A stretch of DNA of 64,000 nt from Piedraia hortae CBS 480.64 (Eukaryota): the NCBI GenBank assembly GCA_010093745.1, contig MU005958.1, positions 62,001 to 126,000 on the forward strand. The letters are read 5' to 3'. Shown here piece by piece: positions 7,541 through 62,433 of the stretch; the stretch's first letter is position 1, and each line of letters begins with the position of its first letter. Under the pieces are notes generated by a model, which had not been told where the DNA came from, searched no databases, and saw only the letters and a list, made by a program, of their open reading frames with translations. The position numbers and the translations under genes are program-made.

Positions 7541-8226
7541 TGTTTATGAGTGTTTTATTAGAGGGTGTATGTGAGTAGAGGGTATCATATTTCTCTCTTC
7601 GGAGATTTCTTTGAGGTGGGGGTTCGTGATGTTTTGTCTTTTGTCCCAATACTCGATATTCTGAAAAACAGAGTCATCTGCGGATATCTGGGAGCATCGG
7701 CAAGCATGTCTAATGACATGCACAATACATACAGTATTAACTGGAAACATATCCACCAGCTCACTCACAGAGATGGTTAAATGCTTCGTGATCTTCTACA
7801 AATACACTGATAGAGGCGTTCACAGAAATATATTGTCTAGTCACGAATACTCACTTTAGCAGACAACACTGAAGCTATGAAAGGGTCATGAGCGAGAAAC
7901 AGCACAATCACCGACAGGCGAAGAAGGAGAACGAACGAGGAACCCTGCACCATCATTGCAATGACTGTCTATCAAAACGTTTTACCTGCCTTGCTTTCTA
8001 GGTTGGGCTCGGCTATGAAGTCCTGTTCAACGTCCACGAAGAAAACAGAATTTACACAGCAGCTTCTCCAATCACTGCGAAATTTCAGTAGCGTTTTGTG
8101 TGAAGACTTTTAAGAATTTTCTTCCAGTACTCAACGGTCTTGAATCAAACTGGTAGCGTGAACTTATCGCCGTGACGCATTTCCGGCTCAATCATCACGT
8201 CCCCCCTGCATAAGGGGAAAAAAAAA

Positions 8227-8345
8227 ACTTACAGCAGCGGGGATTCCCACGTGGTCACCCACCGTAGTACTAATTCGCCGGTTTGCAGCTTAAGTTCAGG
8301 AGAGCGGACGGGATCCTCTGTTCTCTGCAACCTATGGCCGTAAGT
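8227..8345 (-). rRNA. 5S rRNA (dispersed copy)
   Basis: Reverse complement ACTTACGGCCATAGG...GATCCCGTCCGCTC...TTAGTAC...GGGTGACCAC...GAATCC...GCTGTAAGT, 119 nt with paired ends; poly-T terminator directly after; TATA-like TTTATAAA about 25 nt upstream. Confidence 0.97.
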
Positions 8346-8760
8346 GGCTGGTTAGCAGGGAGAATCATTTATAAACTCCAGTCCTTGTTTATAATTTCAA
8401 ATGCAAACGCGAGCGAATTTTTGCACACCAACAGGAGTGTATATTTTTACGAGTGGAGGCTGATTAGGTGTGCCAAGACTGTCCCGCCTCGCAGCGTCAT
8501 TGCGCAACCTCGTCATGATTACGTGACCTCGTCTATAGCGAACCTTCCTCTTTCGTGGTAAAAATTCTGGGTAGGTGCGTCTTGTATCCCGAAGAGACTT
8601 AAGATAACCAAAAACTGCAACACAACAAAGACAAAACCACAGTGGCACTGGAAAGTCTGACGCCCTATCTTCCTCTTCCAGGCCGTTTGACACAGTCTTT
8701 ACTGCAAGCCGTCATGACTCCGCCAAGAGTGTTTCGACAAAGGGGCTACCATCACCAAGC

Positions 8761-9091
8761 CAGTCGACCCTCGCACCTAACTACTTCTGGCGCGCGTCTG
8801 ACAGGGTTTATACTGCAAGCCACGTCGACAGAGTCAACGTGAATTTTCGGCGGACTTTCACAAATAGCACCATCACAAAACCATTTGACTCGATATCCGT
8901 CGATCACCTCTTCAAGGGTCACTTTGCCCCTGCGATTGGTTAGTAAACTCAATCCCTCGCTTTGATCATCCGAGCTAACAAATCCAGGTCCTCGCCTACA
9001 GGCGGGCACAGGTACTTCCGTGGCCCTGTCGGTCGCAATCTCCAGGACACTCGACGGGCCGGCGGTCGAGGTACCTGCTGAAGGTGCATGA
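8761..9091 (+). CDS. Orphan small-protein paralog, copy A (5' end not determined; may be a pseudogene)
   Basis: Frame 8821-8938 reads ...TITKPFDSISVDHLFKGHFAPAI(G); intron 8939-8987 (GTTAGT..GCTAAC..CAG); last exon PRLQAGTGTSVALSVAISRTLDGPAVEVPAEGA*; homologous to 11124-11529. Confidence 0.6.
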
Positions 9092-9249
9092 AGCATTGGC
9101 GGCAACCTCGCCCCTGGCTGTGGCTGGAGATATGATGAAAGGCGCTTGGGGTTCTCCGTTTTTATCACGGAGTGAAAGATCACAGAGGGATTCTGTGACT
9201 TGGATGGGAAAGCACTTGCGAATGTGTACGATCATGGTAGGGCACCGAG

Positions 9250-9800
9250 GGATTTCCAAAAGTACCTATGAGATATGCAGGAGCACCTGTGAACAGCTTA
9301 GACAATGAATATGCATCACATCGATCGTCAAGCGTGGAGATTCTATCTGCAACTCCCGACAAACGATTGTATGTTGTGTTGTCACCTGTGCCTTTGAAAC
9401 TGGAAACCACCACAGCATATTTGAACAAATATGGCAGGAGCAATTTTGCACGTCTCCTGGCGTCCATCAGTGACCTGCCAATCAGCTTGACCAGGACTTT
9501 CCTTAGAAGGGTTGAAAGAGCCCGGACACTAGTGGATATGCTTTTGCAGTTAAAGTTCGCAGAAGCATTATGCGCGCACGTGGATATTAAGATTCTTAAC
9601 CCCACAACGCTTTAAAATAGACATGGAAGGAGCAAAGGGGCAGATTTGCACATCCACTAGTGTCCGCCAATGATTGGTCAGCCAGCTCGAGTGAGGTTCT
9701 TCTCTGGCTGGGCGAAAGTATCGGACGATAGTGGACGTGGTTTTGTACATACTTCGATGATATACTATGTGTGGCAGTGGAATCAGCCATTGGCGACAAT
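9250..9800 (+). pseudogene. Possible decayed Ser/Thr protein kinase relic
   Basis: In order across frameshifts and stops: HVDIKILN (like H.DIK..N), SEVLL..G/RKYRTIVDV (like PEVLLG..Y...VD.W), CVAVE. Confidence 0.3.
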
Positions 9801-11123
9801 ATTAAGTTAGATAGCCACTCAGATGGCTGTCTCAAATACACAACAGCTACGCTGGGATTTGACTACGGGTCCTCATATCAACAACACAGTAAAAATCCAT
9901 CTTTACATGTGTCCTCCTTAGCACAGAATGATACTTTGCTGTTATTTGCAACAGGCGTTCTCTTGAGCTAGTATGTGAAAGATGCTTAAGCGGCGTAGCA
10001 TCAGCAATGTTAATCTGGCGTGCGATTGGAAATGCACTGGTTCCGATGTCAAGTGTTAACTTCAAGGAATGAAATTTTTTTTGCGCTAGACCTTGGCGAA
10101 TACCTTCGTTATTGATAATTTTGGCTTGGCTTCAACGCCAATGCCTCATGTTGACTGGCTGAAAGTTCTGAACGGAATTTGTTATAAAGATGGCAGTATG
10201 ATCTTCATCTTCAATATTTGCGATAGCTTTCCTGCACAATAGGACGGCTTATATATTAAAAGTGTATTCATCAACGTGGTCGAAAGGTTAACCATTATGC
10301 CTTTACCGTCAGTATCCATCCCACGCCCTTTCCCCACGCTAACCGTCTCTACGAACATTAGGAAGCTTCCTAGAATACCCGCAACTATCCTCTTTCCACC
10401 TGGAGCCTGGCTAGCAATTCTTAATGGTCCATGTAGGGCTGGGCAGAATGACAGAGTCTGGTCTTCGAACCAAGACCTTGATAAGCAATGTGAAGACAAA
10501 CTCGAGCCCATGAGCAATCTCGTTAGAGGCTTTTTCATGCTGGAACCATATCCATGTTTCTCGGTGAATTATGGGAGGGATACATATCAGTCATCAACTG
10601 CCCCACGCAGGATCAAACTTGCTCAGGGTTCAGTCTTTTGTGACCTGTTAGTAACCCAACATGCTCAACGCCCCACGGGATCGGACGCGCTGCTGATTGT
10701 ACGCGTAAGGCCTCCACCCGGGCTGGAATAAGTAAATCTCTCCGTCGCTCTTTCTCTTTCTCGTTCTCCTTTGCATCAACTTGCGAGAGAAGCTTCAGCC
10801 ACAATCCCAAGCTAGAACCATCAATACAAGGTATTGCAAGGTAAGTGCAGCCCTTCCATATGCCTTTCACGGTCCCATCACGCCGCCTCAACACACTGCC
10901 CCGTCTCACCACTCCACCTCACCCCACCTTCATCACTTCCATCACTACGGCCTCTATCCACTTCATCTATCACCACCGCTTCACCTATCACTCCACTCCC
11001 TACGCCTCGCCCATCACTCTATGTCTTTCCACCATGCACTTTCACTCGGTTATCCATCCATCATCGCTCTTGCCTGGAATTGGTCCCATGGCTAACGTGG
11101 ACAGGCCATTTATAAGCATCACG

Positions 11124-11529
11124 ATGACTCGCTTCTGCGGTGTGCATGTCCGCCTCCCCGTCCGGGCTAAGGCTCGCAGGTTCAAACGCTGGGTCTTCAG
11201 CCGCCCGGAGCCTATCTGTCTTGGAGCTTTCGAAGACGGGGTGTTCGCGGCAGGTCGCGTCGACGGGGTTAATGTAAGTGTGCGATCAACTTACACGCAG
11301 GTTACAATCACCAAGCCCTTCAATCTCATCCCCGTCGACCACCTATTTAAGGGTCATTATGACCCCAAGATTGGTGAGTAAACCCATTCTTGGATTTCAT
11401 CGGCTAAACCAATGAAATTTTCCAGGGCCTCGCCTCGAGGTGGACACTGACACCTCCGAGCCCCTTTCCGAAGTCATCGCCAGGACGCTGGACGGGTCGG
11501 CGGCCGAGGACTCGGATGAGCGTGCGTGA
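11124..11529 (+). CDS. Orphan 117-aa protein, copy B (inside left IR arm)
   Basis: Probable 5'UTR intron 10841-11104 (GTAAGT..GCTAAC..ACAG); ATG 11124; intron 11374-11425; MTRFCGVHVRLPV...TITKPFNLIPVDHLFKGHYDPKIGPRLEVD...DERA*. Confidence 0.7.
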
Positions 11530-11587
11530 AGCAATGACGGCATCTGCCATGCTTCTTATCTTTTTCTGTTTTCTGCCTTTTTCTGCC

Positions 11588-11648
11588 TTTTGTTTTCTTG
11601 GTTTGTTTTCTTGGTTTGTTTTCTTGGTTTGTTTTCTTGGTTTGTTTT
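11588..11648. repeat. 13-bp minisatellite (TTGTTTTCTTGGT) x ~4.5; mirrored at ~25133-25193
   Basis: Direct reading. Confidence 0.9.
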
Positions 11649-11874
11649 TGGGCGGCGTTGGATGCAGGGCGCTTGGATCTTTGCTTTTCTGTTTTTTTTC
11701 CGAAAGGACCACCTGGACTTCTTGCCCTTCTTACTCCGCAAGAAGGCATACTGCACGCAGACCTACACGACTAACACACCGCACCCTACAAGATAATATT
11801 ATTATGGACGGCACGTGGAACCTGGACACCGAAGGCACCTACGAACACTCATTGACATCTACAAGATCCATAAT

Positions 11875-13800
11875 GCCCTACGGATCCCTACGGATCCCTA
11901 CAATCCCTACGGAAACCTACGATCCCTACGATGAACATTCAATGAAGCCTACGAGGCCCTACGACTCCCTATGAAACCCTAGGGAAACCTACGATCTCTA
12001 CGAAGCCCTACGAAGCCCTAAGAAAACCTACGATCCTTATGGAAACCTATAATTCCTAGGTCCGAACACTCATTAACACCTACGAGAACTTGCACAGTCC
12101 TAAGAAGGCTTTAGGAGACCTAAGGAGATCCACATACGCCTGCAATCACCTACGAAGATATTCATTACCACCTATAGACCAACACGACCACCTACAACAC
12201 CTAGACACCCCAGCGAGAACCTTTCAAAAGGCACAACATTTACGACCACATATGGAGGTTTAAGAGCATCTACAAGCATCTGCAACGACATCTGTGCATA
12301 CACTGACGGACAAATCACCGGAGAAATCATCGAAGGCTTCAACAAAGACATCGTTTACGTTCACGGAGGCATTACCAAGATCCTAATGAAGCCATCTGCA
12401 AGTGTTCAAAAGCGCCCACGAGTACATGCAAGCATTTAATGAAACATTCACTAAGACATTTACCAACCCATAGACGAAGCCACATGCGGATATTTAGAAG
12501 TTTCTACGAGCATTTGTGATGACATTCACTGGCCAGGGGTATTTACAGTTACATTTACAAGGCCATTCGAGAAGGCATTTACGAGCACAATCGACGAACT
12601 CACTTACAACTACACTTGCGAAGACTGCACGAACACCCACGGAAGACACTTCAATTATCAGCACCTTGGAGCCACAGAATATTCATGAGGTCATACGAAT
12701 ACAAGCATAAATCGCTCACACCCACGAAAACGTTCACGAAGACACCTAAGAAGGCATTTACCAAGAAATGAACAAAGCCACCTGCGTACATTTAGACGCA
12801 CCTACGACCATTTGCGAAGGCATTCAATGAGCCGCATACGTTGCCCACCTGAGGCATCTACAAAATCTTCTCGGCCTCACTCGAGGGATTTATGAGAACA
12901 ATCGACGAACTCATCTACAAGGACACAGACACCTATCCAATTGCCAGACAACAATGGAGCCACAGGGATGGTTATGAAGCACAGGCATTGAGAGGAGAAG
13001 AAGGGGCGAAGGATGAACACTCATTACCAGCAGGAAGCGAGCCAAGGAATTAGACAATCATTCGACACCACCCACAAGCAACGAGCAACGAGGATTATTC
13101 ATGGCATGAAGACTGGACAAGCGTTATGAAATCGAGAATCAGCCATGACAACACATGGACTGGATAAGCACCGACTGTACGAGCTGTAACTGGACAAACA
13201 CTAACGGCACAAGCAATATACAAGTATTCACCAACACCTGGACGATCATTAGACTAATCAACATTCAACGACAGGGAACCTAAGACGACAAGGCTGCCAC
13301 TGCAAGGAATCTCAAGGTATGACATAAGGAAGGAGAAAAGAATTTGGATGGAATGCGAGGATTACCATGCCATTGGTCAAGAGGAAGAAGCTAAATGACA
13401 AGGATGATAGCCTCAAGCGGAAGGATGACAAGCTTTTGAACAATCACCGCAGACGAAAGACGACAAGCAACTGCTGCCGACGATTAACTATAGCAGGAGG
13501 TAAGGCTTATGGCAAGGACGAGAGCGAGACGTTGACCACGACAGGGACAAGACGATTACAAGACGCACGAGAGTCTGGGAAGGTATCGAAATGGAACGGG
13601 CTGGGTTGGCGTTTGGGTACAGGAGTTTTTGCTTTGGGATGGGTGTTGGGAATGGGAGTATGGGTCGGAGTTTGGGTGAAGGAGCTTTTGCTTTGGGCGG
13701 GCAATGTATTTACTTTTCTCATAGATTTTATTATGTCAAACCGGTTTACCTTTTTCACTTTGTAGACCGGATTCAACTGTGAATATTTTTCTTCAACTTC
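11875..13800 (+). repeat. Degenerate low-complexity repeat body of the left element (CCCTACGGAT-type units grading into C/A-rich repeats)
   Basis: Reiterated ccctacg/cctacgaag units and strong strand skew; patchy similarity to the reverse complement of ~22690-24810. Confidence 0.7.
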
Positions 13801-22689: not shown

Positions 22690-24810
22690 GTGTTCATCTC
22701 ACTGTTAATCCAGAATTTTGCACGGCTTCGGTATTAGAGAAAAACAAGTCTCAACATACCGAAACCGAAAGTTCAGTGACAGGAATTGTAAATTTACGGT
22801 GTCCAAGACCAGTGCGAGAGTTGGAGAAATAAAAGATTCCCCAACTCCCTTGCTCTCCCAAATGCGTCTTGTGCCTGTTTCCGTCAGCAACCGGCTTCCA
22901 GCCTTCAGCCACGCTCTCACTCTCGCCTTCAGCCTAGTATATTTGATAGTTGTCGGCCTTCGGGTGCTTGTCCTCGTGCCAGTCCCGTTCGTCTGCCAAG
23001 ATGCTTGTCCCAATGTCCATTGCGTCTCGTTATCGTCCTGTTTCTGTTTCGGTAAAGTTAATATCTTGCTTCCAGTCTCCAGCTGTATTCCCACCCTTGA
23101 CTTCAGCCTCGTATATTTGAAAATCGTCGGTCTTCGAATGCTTGCTTATCGTTGTTTCCAATTCGTCTGCCCTGATTGTCCAAAGGCTTGTCCAGTGCTT
23201 GCGAAATGCTTCTCCCAACGCTCCTCGTCCTTGCTCCTATCTGCCTCCTTCCCTTCAGCCATGTTCATGCCAACAGTCATCGTCTAGGCCCACCCCGCCT
23301 CCATGGGTAGGATAGAGGTGGGATGGACCTGGACAATGACCAGTGGCATGGTCCTTCTCTCCATCCTACTGTCCACGCTCGGGTGTCTTTGCTGTTGTGT
23401 CCTTGCTGTCTTCGATACTATGTTGGTGCTTTTTGGCTGTTTCAACGATCGAAGGGATGGTGCTGTTAGTGCTGTCTGGTTAGTACTTGTACGGTTAGTG
23501 CTCTTCCAGGGAGTGCTGTCCGGTTAGTGCTCGTCCAGTGAGTGCTTATCCATGTGATGCTTGTCCCGTTGTTGGGCATGTAGTGAGTGCTCGTCCCGTT
23601 AGTGCTCGTCCAGTCCACCTAGCCTTGTCACAGTTAATACTCGGTCGAACTCTTGCCGGCAAGGTCAAGTGATAGTTTAGGGCTTCTTTACCCACTTCTT
23701 GCTCCTGCTGGCAATTAGTGGTTATTGCTTCTCCATTTCCTCTTCCTGTTAATGATTGTGTTGTTGCTCGCCCAAGATTGTCCACGTAGCTTCGGTGTTG
23801 TCTAATGATTGAATAGTCGATTGAATAGTCGTCCGTGCGGGTCCGTGAATAGGCTCAATCAAGTGTGTTAAATGTTGATGGTCGTATTCTTGAATGATGC
23901 CGTGAATAGCTTTATATCGCCCTTGTAGGTGCCTCATGTCGGAGATGTATGTGTCTCAGTGAAAGTCTTCGTGAATGCCTGTGAGAGCTCCGAAGTGTTC
24001 CAAAGAGGTTTCATTGATGTCTCAGTTAGTCCCTTTGTAAGTGTCAACGATGATGTGTGCTTGTATTTCTTCGTAAATTCATTCGTTAATGCCACCAGGA
24101 AATGTCACCGATTTACGCTTATATTTTCCGCAAATGTCTTCATCTTGAGCGTATGTGTCTTCGCGATTGTTTTCATGAATGCTTGCAGGTCCTCTTGAAT
24201 GATTGTTGGTGGCTTTGTCAATGTCTTTGTATACGATACGTGCTTGCTCAAGTGCTGGTAAATGTCCGCAAGTGTCTATGACAATCTTCGTGAATGAATG
24301 CGTGGATAGTCTGTAAACCCTCTTAAAGATCTCGTGGTTCTGTTAAGGATGACAATGTAGATGCTCGTAAAAGCTCTTAAATCTTCACACGTAGTCGTAG
24401 ATATTGTGGTCTTGCAGGGGTTTCCGTAGGGGCGTCGAGGTGGATTAGGAAATTGCGCGGGTTCATGTGTGGTAAGGAATGTCTTCGTAGGTGCTTGCAT
24501 TCATATGTGGGTATCCTTAGGTCTGCTTAGGACTCTATAGGTGTTTAAGGCTTTTCGTAGGCTGTCGTGGTGAGTCGTAGGGTTTCGTAGGTGTCAACGA
24601 GTGTTCGTCGTAGGGATTAGTAGGGACACATAGGGACACATAGGGACAAGTAGGCATCAATGAGCGGTGGTAGGGCTTTTTAGGTCCTTATAGGTGCCCG
24701 TCCCGGCCAATAGGTGGTAACGAGTGCTCTTCTTAGGTGCTTGTCGGCGTGCGTGGGTCTTCTCAGGTCTTCCAGGTCTTTTAAGGCTTGTGCAGGCTTC
24801 CGTGGGTTGC
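22690..24810 (-). repeat. Degenerate repeat body of the right element (diverged homolog of ~11971-13800, inverted)
   Basis: Shared blocks such as tttaagagc.t.tac.agcatct, tgaggca.ctacaa and cacatgga..taagcac; conceptual RLVPV in ORFs 22718-23287(+) and 13507-13899(-). Confidence 0.65.
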
Positions 24811-26280
24811 AGGGAATCGTAGGGCCTCGTAGGCTTCGTTGAATGTTCATCGTAGGGATCGTAGGTTTCCGTAGGGATTGTAGGGATCCGTAGGGATCCG
24901 TAGGGCATTATGGATCTTGTAGATGTCAATGAGTGTTCGTAGGTGCCTTCGGTGTCCAGGTTCCACGTGCCGTCCATAATAATATTATCTTGTAGGGTGC
25001 GGTGTGTTAGTCGTGTAGGTCTGCGTGCAGTATGCCTTCTTGCGGAGTAAGAAGGGCAAGAAGTCCAGGTGGTCCTTTCGGAAAAAAAACAGAAAAGCAA
25101 AGATCCAAGCGCCCTGCATCCAACGCCGCCCAAAAACAAACCAAGAAAACAAACCAAGAAAACAAACCAAGAAAACAAACCAAGAAAACAAAAGGCAGAA
25201 AAAGGCAGAAAACAGAAAAAGATAAGAAGCATGGCAGATGCCGTCATTGCTTCACGCACGCTCATCCGAGTCCTCGGCCGCCGACCCGTCCAGCGTCCTG
25301 GCGATGACTTCGGAAAGGGGCTCGGAGGTGTCAGTGTCCACCTCGAGGCGAGGCCCTGGAAAATTTCATTGGTTTAGCCGATGAAATCCAAGAATGGGTT
25401 TACTCACCAATCTTGGGGTCATAATGACCCTTAAATAGGTGGTCGACGGGGATGAGATTGAAGGGCTTGGTGATTGTAACCTGCGTGTAAGTTGATCGCA
25501 CACTTACATTAACCCCGTCGACGCGACCTGCCGCGAACACCCCGTCTTCGAAAGCTCCAAGACAGATAGGCTCCGGGCGGCTGAAGACCCAGCGTTTGAA
25601 CCTGCGAGCCTTAGCCCGGACGGGGAGGCGGACATGCACACCGCAGAAGCGAGTCATCGTGATGCTTATAAATGGCCTGTCCACGTTAGCCATGGGACCA
25701 ATTCCAGGCAAGAGCGATGATGGATGGATAACCGAGTGAAAGTGCATGGTGGAAAGACATAGAGTGATGGGCGAGGCGTAGGGAGTGGAGTGATAGGTGA
25801 AGCGGTGGTGATAGATGAAGTGGATAGAGGCCGTAGTGATGGAAGTGATGAAGGTGGGGTGAGGTGGAGTGGTGAGACGGGGCAGTGTGTTGAGGCGGCG
25901 TGATGGGACCGTGAAAGGCATATGGAAGGGCTGCACTTACCTTGCAATACCTTGTATTGATGGTTCTAGCTTGGGATTGTGGCTGAAGCTTCTCTCGCAA
26001 GTTGATGCAAAGGAGAACGAGAAAGAGAAAGAGCGACGGAGAGATTTACTTATTCCAGCCCGGGTGGAGGCCTTACGCGTACAATCAGCAGCGCGTCCGA
26101 TCCCGTGGGGCGTTGAGCATGTTGGGTTACTAACAGGTCACAAAAGACTGAACCCTGAGCAAGTTTGATCCTGCGTGGGGCAGTTGATGACTGATATGTA
26201 TCCCTCCCATAATTCACCGAGAAACATGGATATGGTTCCAGCATGAAAAAGCCTCTAACGAGATTGCTCATGGGCTCGAG
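24811..26280 (-). repeat. Right arm of the 1.47-kb inverted repeat
   Basis: Reverse complement of 10501-11970; outer junction lies within the palindrome GGGCTCGAGCCC at 26272-26283. Confidence 0.98.
25252..25657 (-). CDS. Orphan 117-aa protein, copy C (same as copy B)
   Basis: Mirror of 11124-11529 inside the right IR arm. Confidence 0.7.
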
Positions 26281-26959
26281 CCCTCTTAAACCATTCGCAG
26301 GCCGTTTCTCCCATACAACATTGCTAGGGAGCTGGAAACCACCTAGTAGGAGTCTCTTCCAGTGGCAAAACACCTATTGAAGCTATGTAGATGCCTAATT
26401 GCAGCCGATATGAAATCGTTTATGACGCCTTCCTCTATCTATTATCTTCTGCACGTACAAGCTCGTTCACACACAAGTCAGATGACTTGGTAATGATATG
26501 CGTGCATTGTATCATGTGGGAATGTTACCAGATATTTACAGGGCCAATCCACAAATGCTATTGGCCGAGGATCACTCAGAGAATGGCAGGGAAGTAAGGG
26601 CAAGTGTGCCTAGCGAGCTGAAGTGCCTTCTAGCATGGGGCACAAACGGACCCCTGTACCATGGGCAAGAAGGTCTGCTTAGGTCGCTACGTGTAAGGAA
26701 AAAGCTGACAAGTACGGTAACCAGGAGCAGCGACAACACACATGAAAAAGGGATAAGGTTTTGCCAAGACGGGCTCGGATGCATCGATAAAAATCTAAAC
26801 CAATTATACTTCCCTTGAAGAGAACAAACAATGGATCGTCACAATGAAAGTATCAAGGTACAGTAAGACATCATGATAAGATAATTGTAAATGAGTTTGG
26901 ATAAAGAGATTTCAATAAGATGTTTCTTTGTAAGACTATCAACACTCTAAGCCTGTCTC

Positions 26960-28126
26960 TCAATAAAAATCGTGAGGATGAGCCCTCGCCACCATTGTGA
27001 CACTAGGCGGAGAGGTCGTCGACGTAGGCACAGCGGATCTAACCGTCATAATGGTCTGAAACCTGCTCGAGGTATTTGCAGGACTCACTGCCGTCGATGA
27101 AGGCGTTGCAGAACTTATGATGAATGCTCCACTTGTCACCGAGGCGCTAACATAAATCACTGTCGCCGTAGATGTTGGTTACGCCGTAGCAGCACCTAGG
27201 CTCTGTATCAAGCCTACAAGCTGCTTGTTCATCTTCAAGACAGAAGTTTAAGCCTCACCATCAAAGACTGTAAAAGCGTTGCACGAAGCTGGTACCGGAG
27301 CTGTTGTGGGGTTTGTACAAGCACCACATTGCGTCGCAGTTGCCAAGGTGGCACCAATAGTCTTGCAAGTGGTGTAATACTCATCCTTGCCATCGGGATA
27401 GGTGCAGTCCGCTTACAGCTGAGTCGGTCACTGCCACACCCAGTAGACTGTCAACTTACCCTCTGGATGAGATGCCGTGATCTGAACATTACTCTCGCAC
27501 CATTGCTCCAGGCTGGATGTGGGCTGACCCGGGACGTGGTTGAGAAAGAGGACCTGGCGGGTGAGTGATACGTTGCCGCAGTTGAGCTGGTGGCACCTAC
27601 CATCGTTGTAGATTTGAGCGGCCATCAGGAAACCATGGCCGTTATCACCTTTGCCGTCTTTCATCCACTGAAGGACATCAACCATCTTTTTGGACTCAAA
27701 TGGCTGGGTAGTGTCATAGACTAAAACGGTGCCGCTGGCCTTTGGCTTGCCAAGCTGGTTTCAGGGCATGGTGACGTGGCCGTTTTCCAGATGCTTCATC
27801 GCTACACAGCTACCCGACTGGGCCTGCAGCATTGGGTAGCTAGGATTGGTGTAGTTGGAAGCATGCTGAGAGGGGTGGCAGAGGAGATCCGAAGAGTAGA
27901 TCTGGATCCGGCCGGACTCACCAGCTGGCACCTGATAGTTCACTGAAAAGCCGTTAAATGAGGGGTCGATGCGTGCAACATACCCACGAGAAAAGCTACG
28001 ATCGCCTATGTAACTGCCGTTCGAACCGATGACCTGGAACTCATCAATCAAGGAATAGCCAAAAGCAGGACCAGCCAATCTTAGAAGGCCAGAAACAAAG
28101 GCGAGAGCTTTGACGTTGCTGAACAT
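26960..28126 (-). pseudogene. Pseudogene of a secreted fungal protein (signal peptide, Cys-containing domain, Ser/Thr-rich tail)
   Basis: ORFs 27761-28126, 27428-27685 and 26960-27160 share one frame; in-frame stops at 27761, 27428, 27413, 27248, 27179; motifs NGSYIG..RGYVAR, ENGHV, DGRC, YWVWQ*P, EYYTTC. Confidence 0.8.
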
Positions 28127-28132
28127 GACAAA

Positions 28133-28201
28133 AATGTATGCAGATGAATGTATGCAGATGAATGTATGCAGATGAATGTATGCAGATGAATGTATGCAGA
28201 T
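28133..28201. repeat. 14-bp tandem repeat (AATGTATGCAGATG) x ~5 just upstream of the pseudogene ATG
   Basis: Direct reading. Confidence 0.95.
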
Positions 28202-28894
28202 AATGTGGTTGTGATGAGGTGCAATGCAAGTTGGTGAGTGATATGGTCAGAAGTAGGCAAACTCGACGCTTTTATGGTCGAAGTGAACAGTGCTGCGAGA
28301 CAATATTATCGACGATCGACAATCGACAATGGAGCATTGTGATATCGGCTCCTGTTTCTTCATCTGTAGCAAGTCCTTTGTTCCTCATCACAAGGTGATT
28401 GAATCCTTTTCTACTTGACACTAAATTGCGTGAATGGAAGAAAGAGCATTGTAGTTAAGTGGGACGAACTGATAGTGTGAGTACACTAAAACATAATTGT
28501 ATTGTTATATATGCAGCATACATGAAAGGACGTTGTTCATGGTCATCACGTGACATATCCTTCAACTTTTGTTGACATTGTGTTTCAGACATCCCAGAAC
28601 CTGCATGCAACTCGGTAGACTGATTGAGCATTTGTGCGTGTAAAACTAACGCGTCAGTGCAACCTATCACATGACAAAATTTTTTTTGCCCAATGGTAGC
28701 CCGAGAAGTTTCGTGTACTAATGCAAAGAGGTCACTTATCAAAAAGAGGGTCATGGTGCGTGGCTGACACTCTACACAGCCTCCCACCACGCCTGAATAA
28801 GCCAATCAAACTATGAAATTGCGTGCACAAAGACCCAACTTCATTTTTCACATTACTATAAATTCCAATTTCTCATACTCACACAGTATAGATC

Positions 28895-28966
28895 GGCCGT
28901 ATGGCCCAATGGTAAGGCGCTTGACTACGAATCAAGAGATCGCAGGTTCGAGCCCTGCTACGGTCA
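28895..28966 (+). tRNA. tRNA-Arg(ACG)
   Basis: GGCCGTA/TACGGTC acceptor stem, CTTGA-CTACGAA-TCAAG anticodon arm, GGTTCGAGCC T-loop, T-run terminator. Confidence 0.97.
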
Positions 28967-31439
28967 CTTTTTGGATTTCTTTATTGCGGATACGTTTGCG
29001 GCGTGATGACTAAGCGGGTGCCCAACCATCCCAAAACTTTTTGGTGGAACAGAGACCAAATGATAGCTAGGAGCTGAGGCTCAAGGAAAATTTCGATTAA
29101 CCGCTACTTGAAGGCCCTTTTAAATCACCTGTGCTATGTACTTTGGTATTAGACCCATTCTTTTTATGTTTGCACATTCCGTCCCATCTGTTGGGATTCT
29201 CAACAAGTCCTTCACCCGCAACGTCCCATGATTTCCCATGTCTTCGTCTCGAAACTTACACCCGGTTGGCTTGCCAACGACGCTATCGTACTCCCAGCGG
29301 TTGTAACGGATGTTCGCAAAGGCTGCGCCAACGACACTGTCCCCATCCTATAACGCACACGTATCGGAGCTTCTATCCTGCAAAGTCCAGAATCCTCTTC
29401 CACTAATAATGTTAGGAATGGGGAAACATCTCTTAAGTTAACGCTGGATGGCGTCCTCAGAATAGGGTCTTGCATTCGTTCGCGCCAACAATATGGCCCT
29501 CTTTCTAGAAAGACAACTCGTGGGTGTTGCGGCCTTTATGCAGTAGTCCTCCGCTGCTGATGAGTGAGGAGACACGTGCACTTGTCAGTGAGGCTGCGCT
29601 TGATGTGCTCTTGAACGAGGACCTTGGACAAAACTTGAGTAGCAGATTAGGTGACCTTTGTAAGCGGCGTTGTTGTCGTTAAAGAGAGGACACTGGAACC
29701 GTGGAAGCGAAACCTGCAAAGAACCATGCACTCTGGTTGTGATAATTGTCTGTCTTCATGACCAGGGCGCGCACCGGGGATATACAGGCTAATGTTGTTG
29801 CCTGATGCCATGGTCCCCTGTCTAGGTAGGGGCCAGTCTTGGTTTCATAAGGTGAGCTGTACAGAATCGGCTTTACCGCTGAGCTTCTGCCACAGTTGTC
29901 TGTGGCAGAAGTGCCCACAGGCCAAGTCTGATTGTGCTTCTAGACACCACAGCAGCAGCGTGAGGCAGCACTTTCGGGGAGAAATATGGTATTGGCGAGT
30001 TTCGTAACCACAACCATCGACACGGCTGCTGCCAGGGTCACAACCAGGCATTCCCAGAGCATTCCCCTCACTGCCTCACCAAGTAATGCGGTCCTTATCC
30101 GTGACACCACCCGCTTGCAGAACGGGGAGCTTTCGCATATGTGTTCGCGATATGGCCCAGATTGTCTTGAGATAGGAGAGCCTGACAAAGTGGGTCGGGT
30201 AGCTCGGTACGTAAAGCCATATTAGGAGCTGTGTGAGAAAGTGCAGCCCCGACTTAAAGCGATACAAGTGTGGACGCTGTTAGTTGCTATTTTTACGTCT
30301 CCCTGTACAAGGCATGTGGTTTTCCGCTCTATCGCTTGCATGCCGGGCCTGTTCTCCAATGTTGCTGACTTGATCTTCGCCCAAACCATCTTTGCAGCAC
30401 TTGAGGGCTGCAATTGTTGGCTTCGAGCAGTAGCAAGGTCTTTGGGTATTCGTTTTACGTTCATAAATGTGGATAACAATTCCTACCGAGGTTGTGTAAA
30501 GACCATAATGGGTGATGGACAGTCAGCAGTGATAGTAACAAAACAAAACGTTCGACCACGGACCTAGGTGTTGGTGTGTAGATGGAATTGTTGGAAATAA
30601 CTGATCGGGTTAATGCGGCTAGTGTTCTGCCGCCTAATTGTCTTCCGCTTAGCTAGAAGGTATTTCGGCAAAGAATAAAAGCGGTAAAGGGCTCCATCAT
30701 GTTGCCAAGAGGGCTTGTCGTGAAATCGGTGATATCGGCGAGCCTGAGCGCTGATTCTTATGCGTTGATAATGTTGAAGGTTCCAATGATTGATATGGCA
30801 CTGTGGAGATAAGAGGTGTGTAGTGTCAGGTCCCTCGACCCTGCAAGAAGGCGAAGGCGTGCATGTGTGCGTGTGCCAAGCCACCCCGCCTTGAAGGACC
30901 CCACCATGGCGGGGGAGCTTTCACATGCTCCACATTGAACCTTTAAAGCAATTTCATTTGTGGGTCTCAGGTTTAGCACGGGCAAGATTCAAAAGAGTCT
31001 GGGACAAGGACATACTTAACGGTATTCAACTAAAGAGTTGTTTTGTCAATGGTACACAAACGTCACGATTCATGTCCTATCAAAGCAGGCTTTCAAAACT
31101 CTTGACTGACAACTCAATCACAATCCCCACGCTCAATTTAACAGACTGGAATTCCCGCTTATGTTGTCCAGCTCATCAAATACGTATGTCCTCCTACCTT
31201 ACAATCCAAAGTTCTGTTCTCAAGAATCCATGAACAACACAAGAGAAAAAAAAAAAGAAGGCTACTCATTACACACCATGAATTACCCTTCAGAGAAAAT
31301 AAAAGACCCACCGACTCCCAAACGCTATCGCTCTTAGCCCGCCAAATGTCTGGAAGAACGCTTGCACTCTCAAGTGTACAATCCTCTCCTTGCTCTTTCC
31401 TTTACCAATTCCATTCGTCCAGTTGCCGTAGAGATGTGT

Positions 31440-32858
31440 CTAGCCACAGCAGAGCACCTTGGCAAGTTTCTGCATGAACCCTTCTTTGGGCGCTTCCGGG
31501 GTCGGCTGCTGCTGCTGTTGGGGTTGTGTCTGTGGCTGCGATTGAGGCTGCGGTTGAGCCTGTGTGGATGTTCCGCCCGTTGCCCGCCCGTTCTGCGGCT
31601 GAGAGGCACCGGTCCGACCGGCGTTGACGGCGTTGTTCGCCTGGTGTAGTGTTACCTGGTTGTTGTCGAGCGCCATGTTGCTGGTGCGCTTGTTTAGGTC
31701 GGCATTGGGCGGCCGTCGGGGCTGTTGACGAGCACCGGCCGCCTGCGGTTGTCGAGAGCCACCGGGCTTGGGGAGGTCAGCGTTCAGTCGGTCCTGGCCG
31801 ATGGCCTTTGACGATCGCTGTGCAGCCACCATGCCGCCTTTGATATCGGCAGCTGACGGATTTCCCTCGCGGTGTGCGGCGCCTCGCTGGTTGTCCCATC
31901 CACGACCGTTGTTCAGCTTCATCCAGTCGTACTCGCCGTCCTCGACCTCGCCCGTGCTCTGCAGCGCCTTGGTGAACAGGTCACGCAGGTAGTCGTAGTC
32001 GGGCGTGTCCTCAAAGCCGAGGTTTCGCGCGTACGAGAGGTATTTGTTGAACTCGTCCGGATAGCCATCGCAGAGGTCGCGCAACACCGTCGTCTGCTTC
32101 TTCTCGCCAATCTTCTCGTACTTTTGCTTGTTGGTGGCGGCTTTGAGCCCCTGCCACGGCAGGCCACCGCGCAGAAAGTACATGAAAACATGACCGAGCG
32201 CCTCCAGATCATCGCGCCGCGACTGCTCCCGACCCAAGTGCGTGTTGATGCTCATGTAGCGGGCGGTACCGCTGAGGCTCTTGCGCTCACGGTATGGGAT
32301 GTGCTGCTTCGTTTTGGGATCGCGATACTGCTTCGCCATGCCAAAGTCGACGACATGGATGACATTCTGCGCCTTGGTGCCGGGACGACCGATGAGGAAG
32401 TTATCAGGTTTAATGTCGCGGTAAATCAGGTTCTTCTCGTGGATCGTCTGCACACGGGACAACATCTGTTTGGCCACCATGACGACCGTCTTGACGCTGA
32501 ACCGGCGACCGCAGTGGTCAAACAGGTCCTCGAGACTGGGGCCGAGGAGGTCGATTACGAGGATGTTGTGTAGGCCCTCCTGGCCAAAAAAGTAGACATT
32601 GGGGATGCCGGCTGCGGCGGTCAGTAGGCGGCCAAAGTGGAGGGGAGGAAGCGACTTACGGCACCCAACCAGGACCTTGTATGTGCGATATTCATCGCGT
32701 AGTTGCGGCGCATCACTCTTACGCGGCTCAAATTTGATGGCCACTTGAGTGTTGTTCAGCAGGTTGGTGCCCTCAAAGATGACGCCAAAGGAGCCCTCGC
32801 CGATCTTCTTGCCGACGCGGTAGTGCGAACCGACGACGTTGCTGCTAGAGCCCGACAT
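31440..32858 (-). CDS. Casein kinase I, membrane-anchored (Yck1/2, Cki1 type)
   Basis: [36 protein letters not shown]-terminal LCCG palmitoylation site; in-frame 48-nt intron 32612-32659. Confidence 0.96.
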
Positions 32859-39392: not shown

Positions 39393-39468
39393 CTGTATAT
39401 AGGATGCGGTAAACCACGTGACATAAAAATATCTGATATGGTCATGTTCAAACAGCAAAAAAAGATGG

Positions 39469-39561
39469 TGACCAGAGTGAGATTCGAACTCACGCCCTTT
39501 CGGACTAGCGATCAGGTAGAGTACCTTAAGCTAGCGCCTTAGACCGCTCGGCCATCTGGCC
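39469..39561 (-). tRNA. tRNA-Leu(AAG), intron-containing
   Basis: GGCCAGATGGCCGAGCGGTCTAAGGCGCTAGCTTAAGG-[short intron]-GCTAGTCCGAAAGGGCGTGAGTTCGAATCTCACTCTGGTCA; long variable arm; T-run downstream. Confidence 0.95.
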
Positions 39562-54809: not shown

Positions 54810-55400
54810 CGTGGGCATGGAATCTTACACATCATTGATGGGTTCAGTTTCCATTACAGCGGAACTACTTTCTCCGATGGGAGATGGCTGTTCGCATTGG
54901 CGATGAAATTGAGGATTTGAAATCTATCCGCCTTTTCCGTGGGCACGGAATCATAAATCAGTTGACGGGTTCGTCTTTTGCTACAGCGGAGTGAAGTGGG
55001 GCATTCTTCTCTCGTTCCGAGAGAAGGTGTCTGGTGCCCACACATCATTGACGGATTCACCTTTCGCTACTGCTGAGGAGTGAGGGAGACTAGCTGTTCA
55101 CTCCGGTGGGGAACTTGCGAATCCGACATCTCTTCGCCTTTTCCGTGGCCCCGGAATCACAGACACCATCTACCGATTCGCCTTTCGCTACATCGGAGTG
55201 AGGCGGGAGATTAGTCTTCCCTTCCAAGAGCAGTTGCCTTCCATGTTCACGGAATCACACACACCATCGACTGGTCCACCTTTCACTACTGCGAAGTGAG
55301 GTAGGAGACTTCTCTCTCCTTCCAAGAAAAAGTGCCTGGTGTCCACACACGCCATTAACAGATTCACCTTTCGCCACGTCGGAGTGAAGTGGGGCATTCA
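54810..55400. repeat. Degenerate tandem array of six ~45-bp cores with variable spacers
   Basis: Core approximately acacatcattgacggattcacctttcgctac.gcggagtga.g.ggg at ~54826, 54957, 55039, 55163, 55261, 55347. Confidence 0.8.
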
Positions 55401-56539
55401 TTCTCCCTTCCGGGAGAAGTTGCCAGCTTCCTACAACGCTGTCAAATCAAGAAGTCGTTTTTCCTCTAGCGAACGGCAGCATGGAAGACAAGAAAATCGA
55501 GGAAGGCCACCAAGTCCTCCAAACCTAGCGATAGTGGCAGTAACGGTGTCGTCGGCCTCAGTACTGGCATCTCCGCTGTGTCGGTTCATGCGATGATATT
55601 TACTTACCGCCTGCACGATCACCGGAAGTTTTGCAAATGCCTGATCTGTCGACCTACACTGACCACGGAGCAGCATCAGTTGTGATGAAACGACCAGAGC
55701 TGAATCAGATACAGAATGGGAGCAGGAGAAGTCTACAAATCATCATCCAGACACACTGCACGATGCATCCAGCCAAGCCTTGACAATGAGTGGGCTGGGA
55801 AGCCGTAACACGGTCGCTCAGCAACGCCGGCGTTATCAAATCCTTTCTGAGCATCCTTCTGCTCTGCTTTCTCTCGTGCACCAGGATGAGAGACATGGGG
55901 CCGTTGTGGACGAGATCGCAGTTACGCTGGTCGTCATCACCGCCGCGAGGCAGTTCGGCCAGTTGTCGATGCCCACTGACAACTTCGAAGCGGGTTCAAG
56001 GCCGGCATCAAGGCGGCATTCCCACCTCTCATCAATGGGAACTCTCCTGCTTGGATGCAACTTGCGGCGGCTTAGCTGCCGGCACCAACTTTGGCCCTGG
56101 CCTCGTCAAACCAAGCCTTGTTCCCTTGACAGCAGAGGGCTGCGCCCTCAAGCAATGCTAATAGCACAACCGCGACAACAACGACAACGACAAATCCTGC
56201 CGCCGTCGAGGTGTGACTTTGAGAAGGGGCACCACATTCCGCACTTCTTACCTAACACTACAACAAGCATTTGCTATACCGGCATGACATTATCTCTCTC
56301 CGGAAGGCCGGGCTCTAGACTATATATCTGGATGTCTGGGGTCGACGGCCTCACTTGGACGAGGCTGCCTCTTGTGTGAAAAGGGACAGGCAATGGAGAT
56401 GGGAAAACACGAATAGACGCACGTCTTCTTTCCTTATCCATCGCGTGTCTCTCACACCTCTACGGCTCAAGAACTTCACTGACGAGCGGTCATCAAAGCT
56501 GATATGCCGGGTTTGAACTCAAAATTATCTCAGTGTCGA

Positions 56540-61206: not shown

Positions 61207-62433
61207 TTACTGAACCAAATCCTTGGTATCCGTCCTCGCAAGGCCCTTGTACTGATCATGCCTTACGATGATCCCTGAAGGTAAAGCCTCCCACTTGGGC
61301 CCCTGTGGCTGCTCTCTAGCTTCGTCAGGGTCGGGATGCAGGATATCACCTAGACTCTTTGAACGGATAGGTTCTAACACAGACATGTCTTGTGAGCCGG
61401 GGTGCTGCAAGCCAGCGTCGGATTTCGATCTCTGGGGCTCCAATTCTTCATTTACATTGTTGGTTGAAGGCTTCTTTTTCCAGAGTCCCAGAAAGCCTTT
61501 CTTGCCGCTGCTGTTGCTGCCGCTGGCATGGGAGGACGTTGCCTTCTGTGATTTGCTGCTGCCGCTGCCACCCTTAAAATGCTCCACGTGATAAGCTTGC
61601 AGCTGTTCGGCAGCCGCGTTTACAGCATCGAGGTGCTCGGGATGGTCTACGGCAGCAACTTCCTTGAGCAGCTCCAGTTTCTTCCGGTCGGCGTCCATGC
61701 GATACCAATCTGGAGCGACATGCCAGCCGAGGGCGCGAATGTCCATCCTCGTGGCGCGATCTACGGCCTCCTTAACGCCCATGAGATCCACCAGAGAGTC
61801 CACGGCATCCCGGATGAGGCTGATAAACTTGTCAAACCGGGCCGTATTGGCTATGATCCACGAATTCATCATGAGCGAGTTGTTACGCGGCGGCCCAAGA
61901 TGCGCATATTCTTCAGCCACCTGCTGCAGCAGACCGAAGCGCTCACGAAAGGCTTCGAGCCGGTTAGTGTCCACGGCGGGCTCCCGGAAGATATCGGGTT
62001 TTTTCGGCGCCCGAAGGCCGTACAACGACATCATCTCATTTCGCGTTTGGCCGGACCCTAGGGTGCGATCGAAGATGGAACCCAGCGTGGCTTCAATCTT
62101 CTGCCTCACATCGGGATCATCCAGCCGCGGGTCGCGGCGGACAAAAAAGGTTGGCTCATTGATGTCAGGGTACGTTGCGCTGGGATGACGCGGGACGACG
62201 CGATTGGTGACCGTTGACGGCGGCGATGTGACGCCGACAATGTCGCCCCAGATCAGTAGCCGCGCCTGTTGAAGGCCGAGTTTGACGAGCAGCAACCGCT
62301 CCTCGTGGGCCGACGACCCCGTGTGCACCAGCCCAAAAGCCTCGACGCATTGCGAGAACATGGTGGCCAGGGCGAGGGCGCCAGCCAAAGGCGCCTCATG
62401 AACTTCTACGTGCTGGCTGCCATCCTTATCCAT
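61207..62433 (-). CDS. HeLo (prion-inhibition/propagation) domain protein
   Basis: N-terminal ALATMFSQCVEAFGLV...LVKLGLQQARLLIWGDIVG and WIIAN..RFDKFISLIRDAVDSL, typical of HeLo domains. Confidence 0.75.
   Translation of the reverse strand: MDKDGSQHVEVHEAPLAGALALATMFSQCVEAFGLVHTGSSAHEERLLLVKLGLQQARLLIWGDIVGVTSPPSTVTNRVVPRHPSATYPDINEPTFFVRRDPRLDDPDVRQKIEATLGSIFDRTLGSGQTRNEMMSLYGLRAPKKPDIFREPAVDTNRLEAFRERFGLLQQVAEEYAHLGPPRNNSLMMNSWIIANTARFDKFISLIRDAVDSLVDLMGVKEAVDRATRMDIRALGWHVAPDWYRMDADRKKLELLKEVAAVDHPEHLDAVNAAAEQLQAYHVEHFKGGSGSSKSQKATSSHASGSNSSGKKGFLGLWKKKPSTNNVNEELEPQRSKSDAGLQHPGSQDMSVLEPIRSKSLGDILHPDPDEAREQPQGPKWEALPSGIIVRHDQYKGLARTDTKDLVQ

Follow-up and report, generated by a model that had tools for sequence, protein, structure and literature searches.

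A small spliced gene of Piedraia hortae with a diverged, apparently transcribed paralogue and an intact copy in a perfect inverted duplication

Three related loci in a 64,000-nucleotide stretch of the Piedraia hortae CBS 480.64 genome raise the question of whether a short spliced reading frame without recognized relatives is a genuine gene, and of how it came to be present in more than one copy. The stretch analyzed here, referred to as the window, comprises positions 62,001 to 126,000 of contig MU005958.1 (assembly GCA_010093745.1, forward strand), and all coordinates below are those of the window. A preliminary description, made from the letters of the DNA, had proposed an unannotated family of three spliced micro-proteins with signs of purifying selection, possibly serving as the cargo of a repeat element. 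The explanation favored here, to which we assign a probability of roughly 0.8, is a joint one. The intact copy B and its mirror copy B' would be a genuine nuclear orphan gene with one intron in the 5' UTR, one coding intron, and a product of 117 amino acids. Copy A would be an older tandem paralogue (dS of about 1.4) that is still transcribed and is spliced at the homologous intron, and the C-terminal unit of 80 residues would be kept by purifying selection. Instead of a transposon, the perfect inverted repeat of 1.47 kb would be the whole transcription unit in duplicate, with arms that either arose very recently or have been held identical by gene conversion.

The gene model of copy B was reproduced in full. 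Joining 11124-11373 to 11426-11529 on the plus strand yields 354 nt that encode 117 amino acids and a stop codon. The first coding exon runs from the ATG through 83 codons plus one nucleotide, the coding intron at 11374-11425 (52 nt, GT..AG) is in phase 1, and the last exon has a length of 104 nt including the TGA stop. Copy B' at 25252-25657 on the minus strand is composed of the same two coding exons and intron, and it is the exact reverse complement of 11124-11529. An additional intron of 264 nt with GT..AG ends was placed in the 5' UTR of copy B at 10841-11104 by a contig of the public run X1, described below. Downstream of the stop, the region 11530-12484 on the plus strand is covered by X1 contigs and is likely the 3' UTR. 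It includes a perfect 13-nt tandem array, (TTTGTTTTCTTGG)4.6, at 11589-11648, with a counterpart at 25133-25192. Arrays resembling CCCTACGA, with periods of 10-39 nt, were found at 11876-12058 and 24851-24916.

Two statements that had accompanied the gene model needed revision. The gene had been called unannotated, and a word-index search with exon 1 returned a single protein, the 117-aa hypothetical protein K470DRAFT_267457 of P. hortae CBS 480.64, which shares 100% identity with the spliced product over all 117 residues. Since the two are equal, copy B is already part of the public NCBI annotation, and a full-text literature search found no publication for the locus tag. The gene was also said to be missed by the list of open reading frames because it is spliced; exon 1 in fact falls within the listed frame 10845-11381 (178 aa) and is in the same frame.

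Contigs of run X1, in which 47% of the words sampled from 8600-11700 were present, were compared with 8000-12600, and the uncovered part 9386-10617 was left out of the evidence. This run, of unrecorded kind, was read as a transcript assembly because its three skips all have GT..AG ends, and the label RNA is a guess. Under this reading, the contigs skipped exactly the three introns named in the preliminary description. The skip of 8939-8987 in copy A had a depth of 13.5 with 255 letters on the shorter side of the joint, and that of 11374-11425 in copy B had a depth of 20.7 with 194 letters. The skip of 10841-11104 in the 5' UTR of copy B had a depth of 4 and just 27 letters on the shorter side, and this intron was also found retained in an unspliced contig of 10812-11132. 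Owing to the identity of copies B and B', the expression seen in the contigs could come from either one. A separate X1 contig of 8,646 nt, with a depth of 260, begins at 12464.

Copy A is located 2.4 kb upstream of copy B on the same strand. A tblastn search with the 117-aa product recovered it as two segments, 8797-8940 (60% over 48 aa) and 8987-9088 (56% over 34 aa), with an E-value of 1e-17. Its transcript is represented by one X1 contig of 773 nt that covers 8488-9297 on the plus strand and skips 8939-8987, with no differing letters and no gaps. The claim that this diverged copy, ending at 9091, shares its intron position, last exon, and stop position with copy B was borne out. Specifically, the intron at 8939-8987 (49 nt, GT..AG) is in phase 1 and splits the Gly codon after the same Ile residue as in copy B, and the last exon at 8988-9091 again has 104 nt including the TGA stop. 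The alignment of 80 codons is free of gaps up to the stop, and the stretches right after the stop are alike by eye. The conserved part corresponds to the last 80 residues of the protein and includes the sequence TITKPF..I.VDHLFKGH..P.IGPRL. When an HMM of this core was searched against 2,263 six-frame pieces of the window, three copies were found at E-values below 1e-15 and the next match had an E-value of 1.2, so the family is a real observation, far beyond chance.

On the minus strand at 8226-8345, 143 nt upstream of the copy A contig, a full-length 5S rRNA gene was identified (86 bits to Rfam RF00001). The X1 contigs at this gene have a depth of about 230-290, several different flanks, and variants of the types T>C or T>A, a pattern that dispersed 5S genes would be expected to give.

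The start of copy A is less clear than its end. Homology to copy B begins at about 8797-8800. The first coding exon (8608-8938) is open from the preceding stop, and the conserved frame spans 144 open codons in 8608-9091 with no in-frame ATG. Two ATGs only occur in 8488-8938: the one at 8515 is in frame with 8608 and meets a stop after three codons, and the one at 8714 is in another frame and opens an ORF of 42 aa. The number of three copies therefore held for the loci in the window, two of which are identical, and did not hold for intact genes, as the third is without an in-frame start. The N-terminal 40 residues of copy B were compared with three frames of 8608-8805, where scores of 16-20 were matched by 208-353 of 500 shuffles and no homology was shown, and a DNA alignment of the 5' regions was ambiguous. 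Because an in-frame ATG is missing, copy A has most probably either begun to decay into a pseudogene or come to use an unconventional start.

An unlikely but credible alternative is that copy A is a working gene that starts at a non-AUG codon or gains its start through a minor splice form. Removal of an in-frame segment of 159 nt (8523-8681), for instance, would join the ATG at 8515 to the conserved frame, with which it is in phase. The pyrimidine tract and AG at 8680-8681 resemble by eye the acceptor of the 5'-UTR intron of copy B, and the 64 codons ahead of the homologous part are free of stops in this frame, an event with a chance of about 0.046 for random codons. The locus is also transcribed and spliced in the X1 contig. 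However, that sole contig is unspliced over 8488-8937, with no joint listed there. Such an intron would need GTGACC as its donor, which corresponds poorly to GTRAGT, the usual consensus of fungal splice donors, and the search with a two-sequence profile found no copy A protein of 60-205 aa in the protein collection. Additionally, the region 8686-8790 contains weak traces of the core in shifted frames (domain E-values of 39 and 3.5) and resembles a decayed partial duplicate of it. As a candidate in its own right, such an internal duplicate was set aside, the traces being weak.

The searches for relatives covered protein databases. Neither the 117-aa protein, the first exon of copy A, nor the last exons of both copies matched any Pfam family at E-values up to 10, and a profile search of the PDB sequences gave no match at the same threshold. 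A phmmer search of 1.84 billion representatives (E-values up to 0.001, no length limit) returned the protein itself together with four long proteins, and a two-sequence profile of copies A and B returned, from 49 candidates, the protein itself only. The four long proteins (P0002-P0005, 726-1566 aa, with five to nine matching stretches each) are all tandem-repeat proteins and were rejected as cases of repeat inflation. This was because their single stretches scored low (22-32 bits, with pairwise E-values of 5e-6 to 3e-4 for one comparison), they are mutually unrelated, and they cover different parts of the query (residues 17-40, 8-78, 46-109, and 23-72). The ESM Atlas scored the whole protein at 0.84 and residues 38-117 at 0.79 at best, values that its own calibration places at chance level. 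The best matches were all phage-type clusters, and they fell below the level often reached by shuffled proteins. Because no protein search gave a relative, the protein looks lineage-specific, and in the databases searched it has so far been found in P. hortae only. This agrees with the earlier impression that it belongs to no recognized family.

The protein could also belong to a known fungal family from which it has diverged quickly, its sequence having drifted beyond detection on the isolated branch of P. hortae, and we consider this possible but doubtful. Short proteins are known to lose detectable similarity quickly, and protein databases alone were searched. Among the 101 Dothideomycetes compared by Haridas et al. 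(2020, PMC7082219), P. hortae ranks lowest in both assembly size (16.95 Mbp) and gene number (7,572). Nevertheless, such a family would have had to escape the phmmer search without a credible match, the Pfam and PDB profile searches with zero matches, and the ESM Atlas, where scores of 0.84 or lower are at chance level.

The composition of the protein differs between its two ends. Residues 1-36 are basic (pI of 11.9, with nine K/R and one D/E), residues 87-117 are acidic (pI of 4.05, with ten D/E), and the whole protein contains two cysteines only. AlphaFold2, run with a two-row alignment, produced an unusable model (pLDDT of 36.1, pTM of 0.17). The structure prediction that had been put forward as a check thus provided no fold to support a structural or functional guess. 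By inference, the conserved unit may be composed of a short strand-rich stretch, followed by the VDHLFKGH..P.IGPRL motif and a helix in the acidic tail. The best, though rather unlikely, guess at the function is a small non-enzymatic binding protein within the cell, where the basic N-terminal 36 residues, being specific to one copy, would form an extension for targeting or for contact with nucleic acids.

The intact gene is carried by both arms of a perfect inverted repeat. The left arm at 10501-11970 (plus strand) contains the whole copy B transcription unit, and the right arm at 24811-26280 (minus strand) carries copy B'. In the assembly the arms are 1,470 nt long, 100% complementary, and 12,840 nt apart. 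Each arm begins about 310 nt ahead of the first transcript contig and continues through the whole gene and its 3' region. At the inner ends, the perfect identity stops inside the short tandem arrays resembling CCCTACGA. Four of the five interior ORFs scanned matched Pfam families (a protein kinase, an RGS/DEP protein, a DUF3405 protein, and a syntaxin). No Pfam family was assigned to the remaining one, 22718-23287, or to the ORF at 24657-25265. No transposase, reverse transcriptase, or recombinase was found among the interior ORFs scanned, and the outer flanks, ATAAGCAATGTGAAGACAAA and CCCTCTTAAACCATTCGCAG, showed no direct repeat that would indicate a target-site duplication. Since the arms are the gene itself, the interior consists of housekeeping genes, and neither a mobile-element protein nor a target-site duplication was found, the repeat is a duplicated gene and not a transposon or a cargo-bearing element, and the earlier idea of a repeat-borne cargo was dropped.

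Inward of the arms, similarity continued at a much lower level. The inner flanks 12079-12292 and 24561-24348 share 70.8% identity over 216 nt with indels (E-value of 7e-24), and a few collinear short matches were found further inward. In a global alignment, the inner flanks had an identity of 0.431 per column and the outer flanks one of 0.324, and ten block-shuffled controls reached 0.225-0.403, so that the inner flanks exceeded them marginally. These similarities hint at an older duplication, of which the outer 1.47 kb may have been homogenized.

An identity of 100% over 1,470 nt is also the expected look of a repeat copied in error during assembly, in which case the right arm with copy B' would be an artefact and two loci would remain. 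This is improbable on several grounds: the window contains no N, an X1 contig (11913-12484) bridges the inner edge of the left arm, and the right arm continues into an inner flank of its own that differs from that of the left arm (about 71% identity over 216 nt, with indels). The arms could also be the ends of a composite mobile element, with the small protein as its cargo or functional gene, and their perfection and sharp outer edges at 10501 and 26280 would fit such terminal inverted repeats. This reading is scarcely credible: the scanned ORFs of the interior include a kinase, an RGS/DEP protein, a DUF3405 protein, and a syntaxin but none for a transposase, reverse transcriptase, or recombinase, the outer flanks ..GAAGACAAA and CCCTCTTAAA.. 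show no target-site duplication, and the small protein has no Pfam family.

Outside the right arm, a region of about 5 kb (26281-31440) contains no ORF of at least 150 aa. The GC content falls to 0.43 at 28001-29000, and a tRNA-Arg gene (ACG) is located at 28895-28967 on the plus strand.

Copies A and B are sufficiently diverged for a comparison of codons. Across the 80 gap-free codons, 47 residues are identical, and 27 of these 47 codons differ synonymously. The differences are distributed as 18, 19, and 42 over the first, second, and third codon positions. The Nei-Gojobori method gave pS of 0.64, pN of 0.22, dS of 1.43, dN of 0.26, and a dN/dS of 0.18, which is approximate only because dS is near saturation. 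The bootstrap range of dN/dS was 0.08-0.35 (935 of 1,000 replicates usable), and the Fisher test of synonymous against non-synonymous differences gave p = 5e-9. Judged from these codon patterns, the core is under purifying selection and neutrality is excluded. The preliminary description was correct in stating that the core is conserved mainly through synonymous changes. It had also stated that the introns have diverged, which was not the case relative to the exons: 34 of 48 intron positions are identical, compared with 161 of 240 exon nucleotides. The introns are as similar as the exons probably because short fungal introns consist mostly of splice signals.

That the transcripts are non-coding and share a reading frame by accident, as the missing fold and relatives of the protein might suggest, is extremely improbable given the third-position excess (18/19/42), a dN/dS of 0.18 for which the bootstrap range ends at 0.35, and an alignment of 80 codons that is free of indels and stops at a dS of about 1.4. 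A fragment of a known transposon protein, which had been raised as a possible refutation, was likewise not indicated, as the small protein matched no Pfam family. The diverged and apparently transcribed paralogue A proves that purifying selection acts on an 80-aa core for which no relatives were detected.

The gene has much in common with other orphan genes for small proteins in filamentous ascomycetes, which are also short and intron-bearing, have neither a Pfam family nor database relatives, yield structures of low confidence, and are annotated as hypothetical proteins. It differs from them in having a diverged paralogue that permits a direct test of selection (dN/dS of 0.18), and in the placement of its intact copy within a perfect inverted duplication. 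Its small size, lineage restriction, and local duplication are shared by the effector-like small secreted proteins of Dothideomycetes. In contrast to such proteins, MTRFCGVHVRLPVRAKARRF shows by eye no hydrophobic core of a signal peptide, the N-terminus is strongly basic, and there are two cysteines only.

A further comparison concerns the palindromes of the human Y chromosome, where pairs of ampliconic genes are kept identical by gene conversion between the arms. The repeat described here is similar in having two inverted arms of 100% identity, each with a whole small gene, and in having inner flanks that are far less similar (70.8% over 216 nt), as expected if an older duplication had been homogenized in part. 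It differs in the length of its arms, just 1.47 kb, and in the single-copy housekeeping genes that fill its 12.8-kb spacer, and conversion is hypothetical here. An improbable extension of the favored explanation is that the domain is confined to Piedraia, possibly arose de novo, and is retained for dosage as a pair within a small palindrome, whose arms are homogenized by conversion and could recombine to flip the block of 12.8 kb. If true, such a palindrome would be found in the most gene-poor genome of the 101 Dothideomycetes compared in PMC7082219. The palindrome could serve as a small test case for conversion or inversion between arms in a compact fungal genome.

The biological advance is modest, as it adds one more lineage-restricted small gene, the intact copy of which was already in GenBank as a hypothetical protein. 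What is new beyond the public model is the transcribed, diverged paralogue A and the perfect inverted duplication around 12.8 kb of housekeeping genes. In addition, a reading of the raw sequence recovered the correct gene model with two introns, as well as the signal of selection.

Elsewhere in the window, a second tRNA gene was found on the minus strand at 39466-39561. It has a length of 93-96 nt and no clear ARAGORN anticodon, and it probably contains an intron. The region 54887-55435 contains a family of direct repeats with four copies of 81 nt that are 65-73% identical to the reference copy, as well as a paired repeat of 67 nt, at spacings of 88-207 nt. These repeats may represent a repeated coding module or a degenerate minisatellite.
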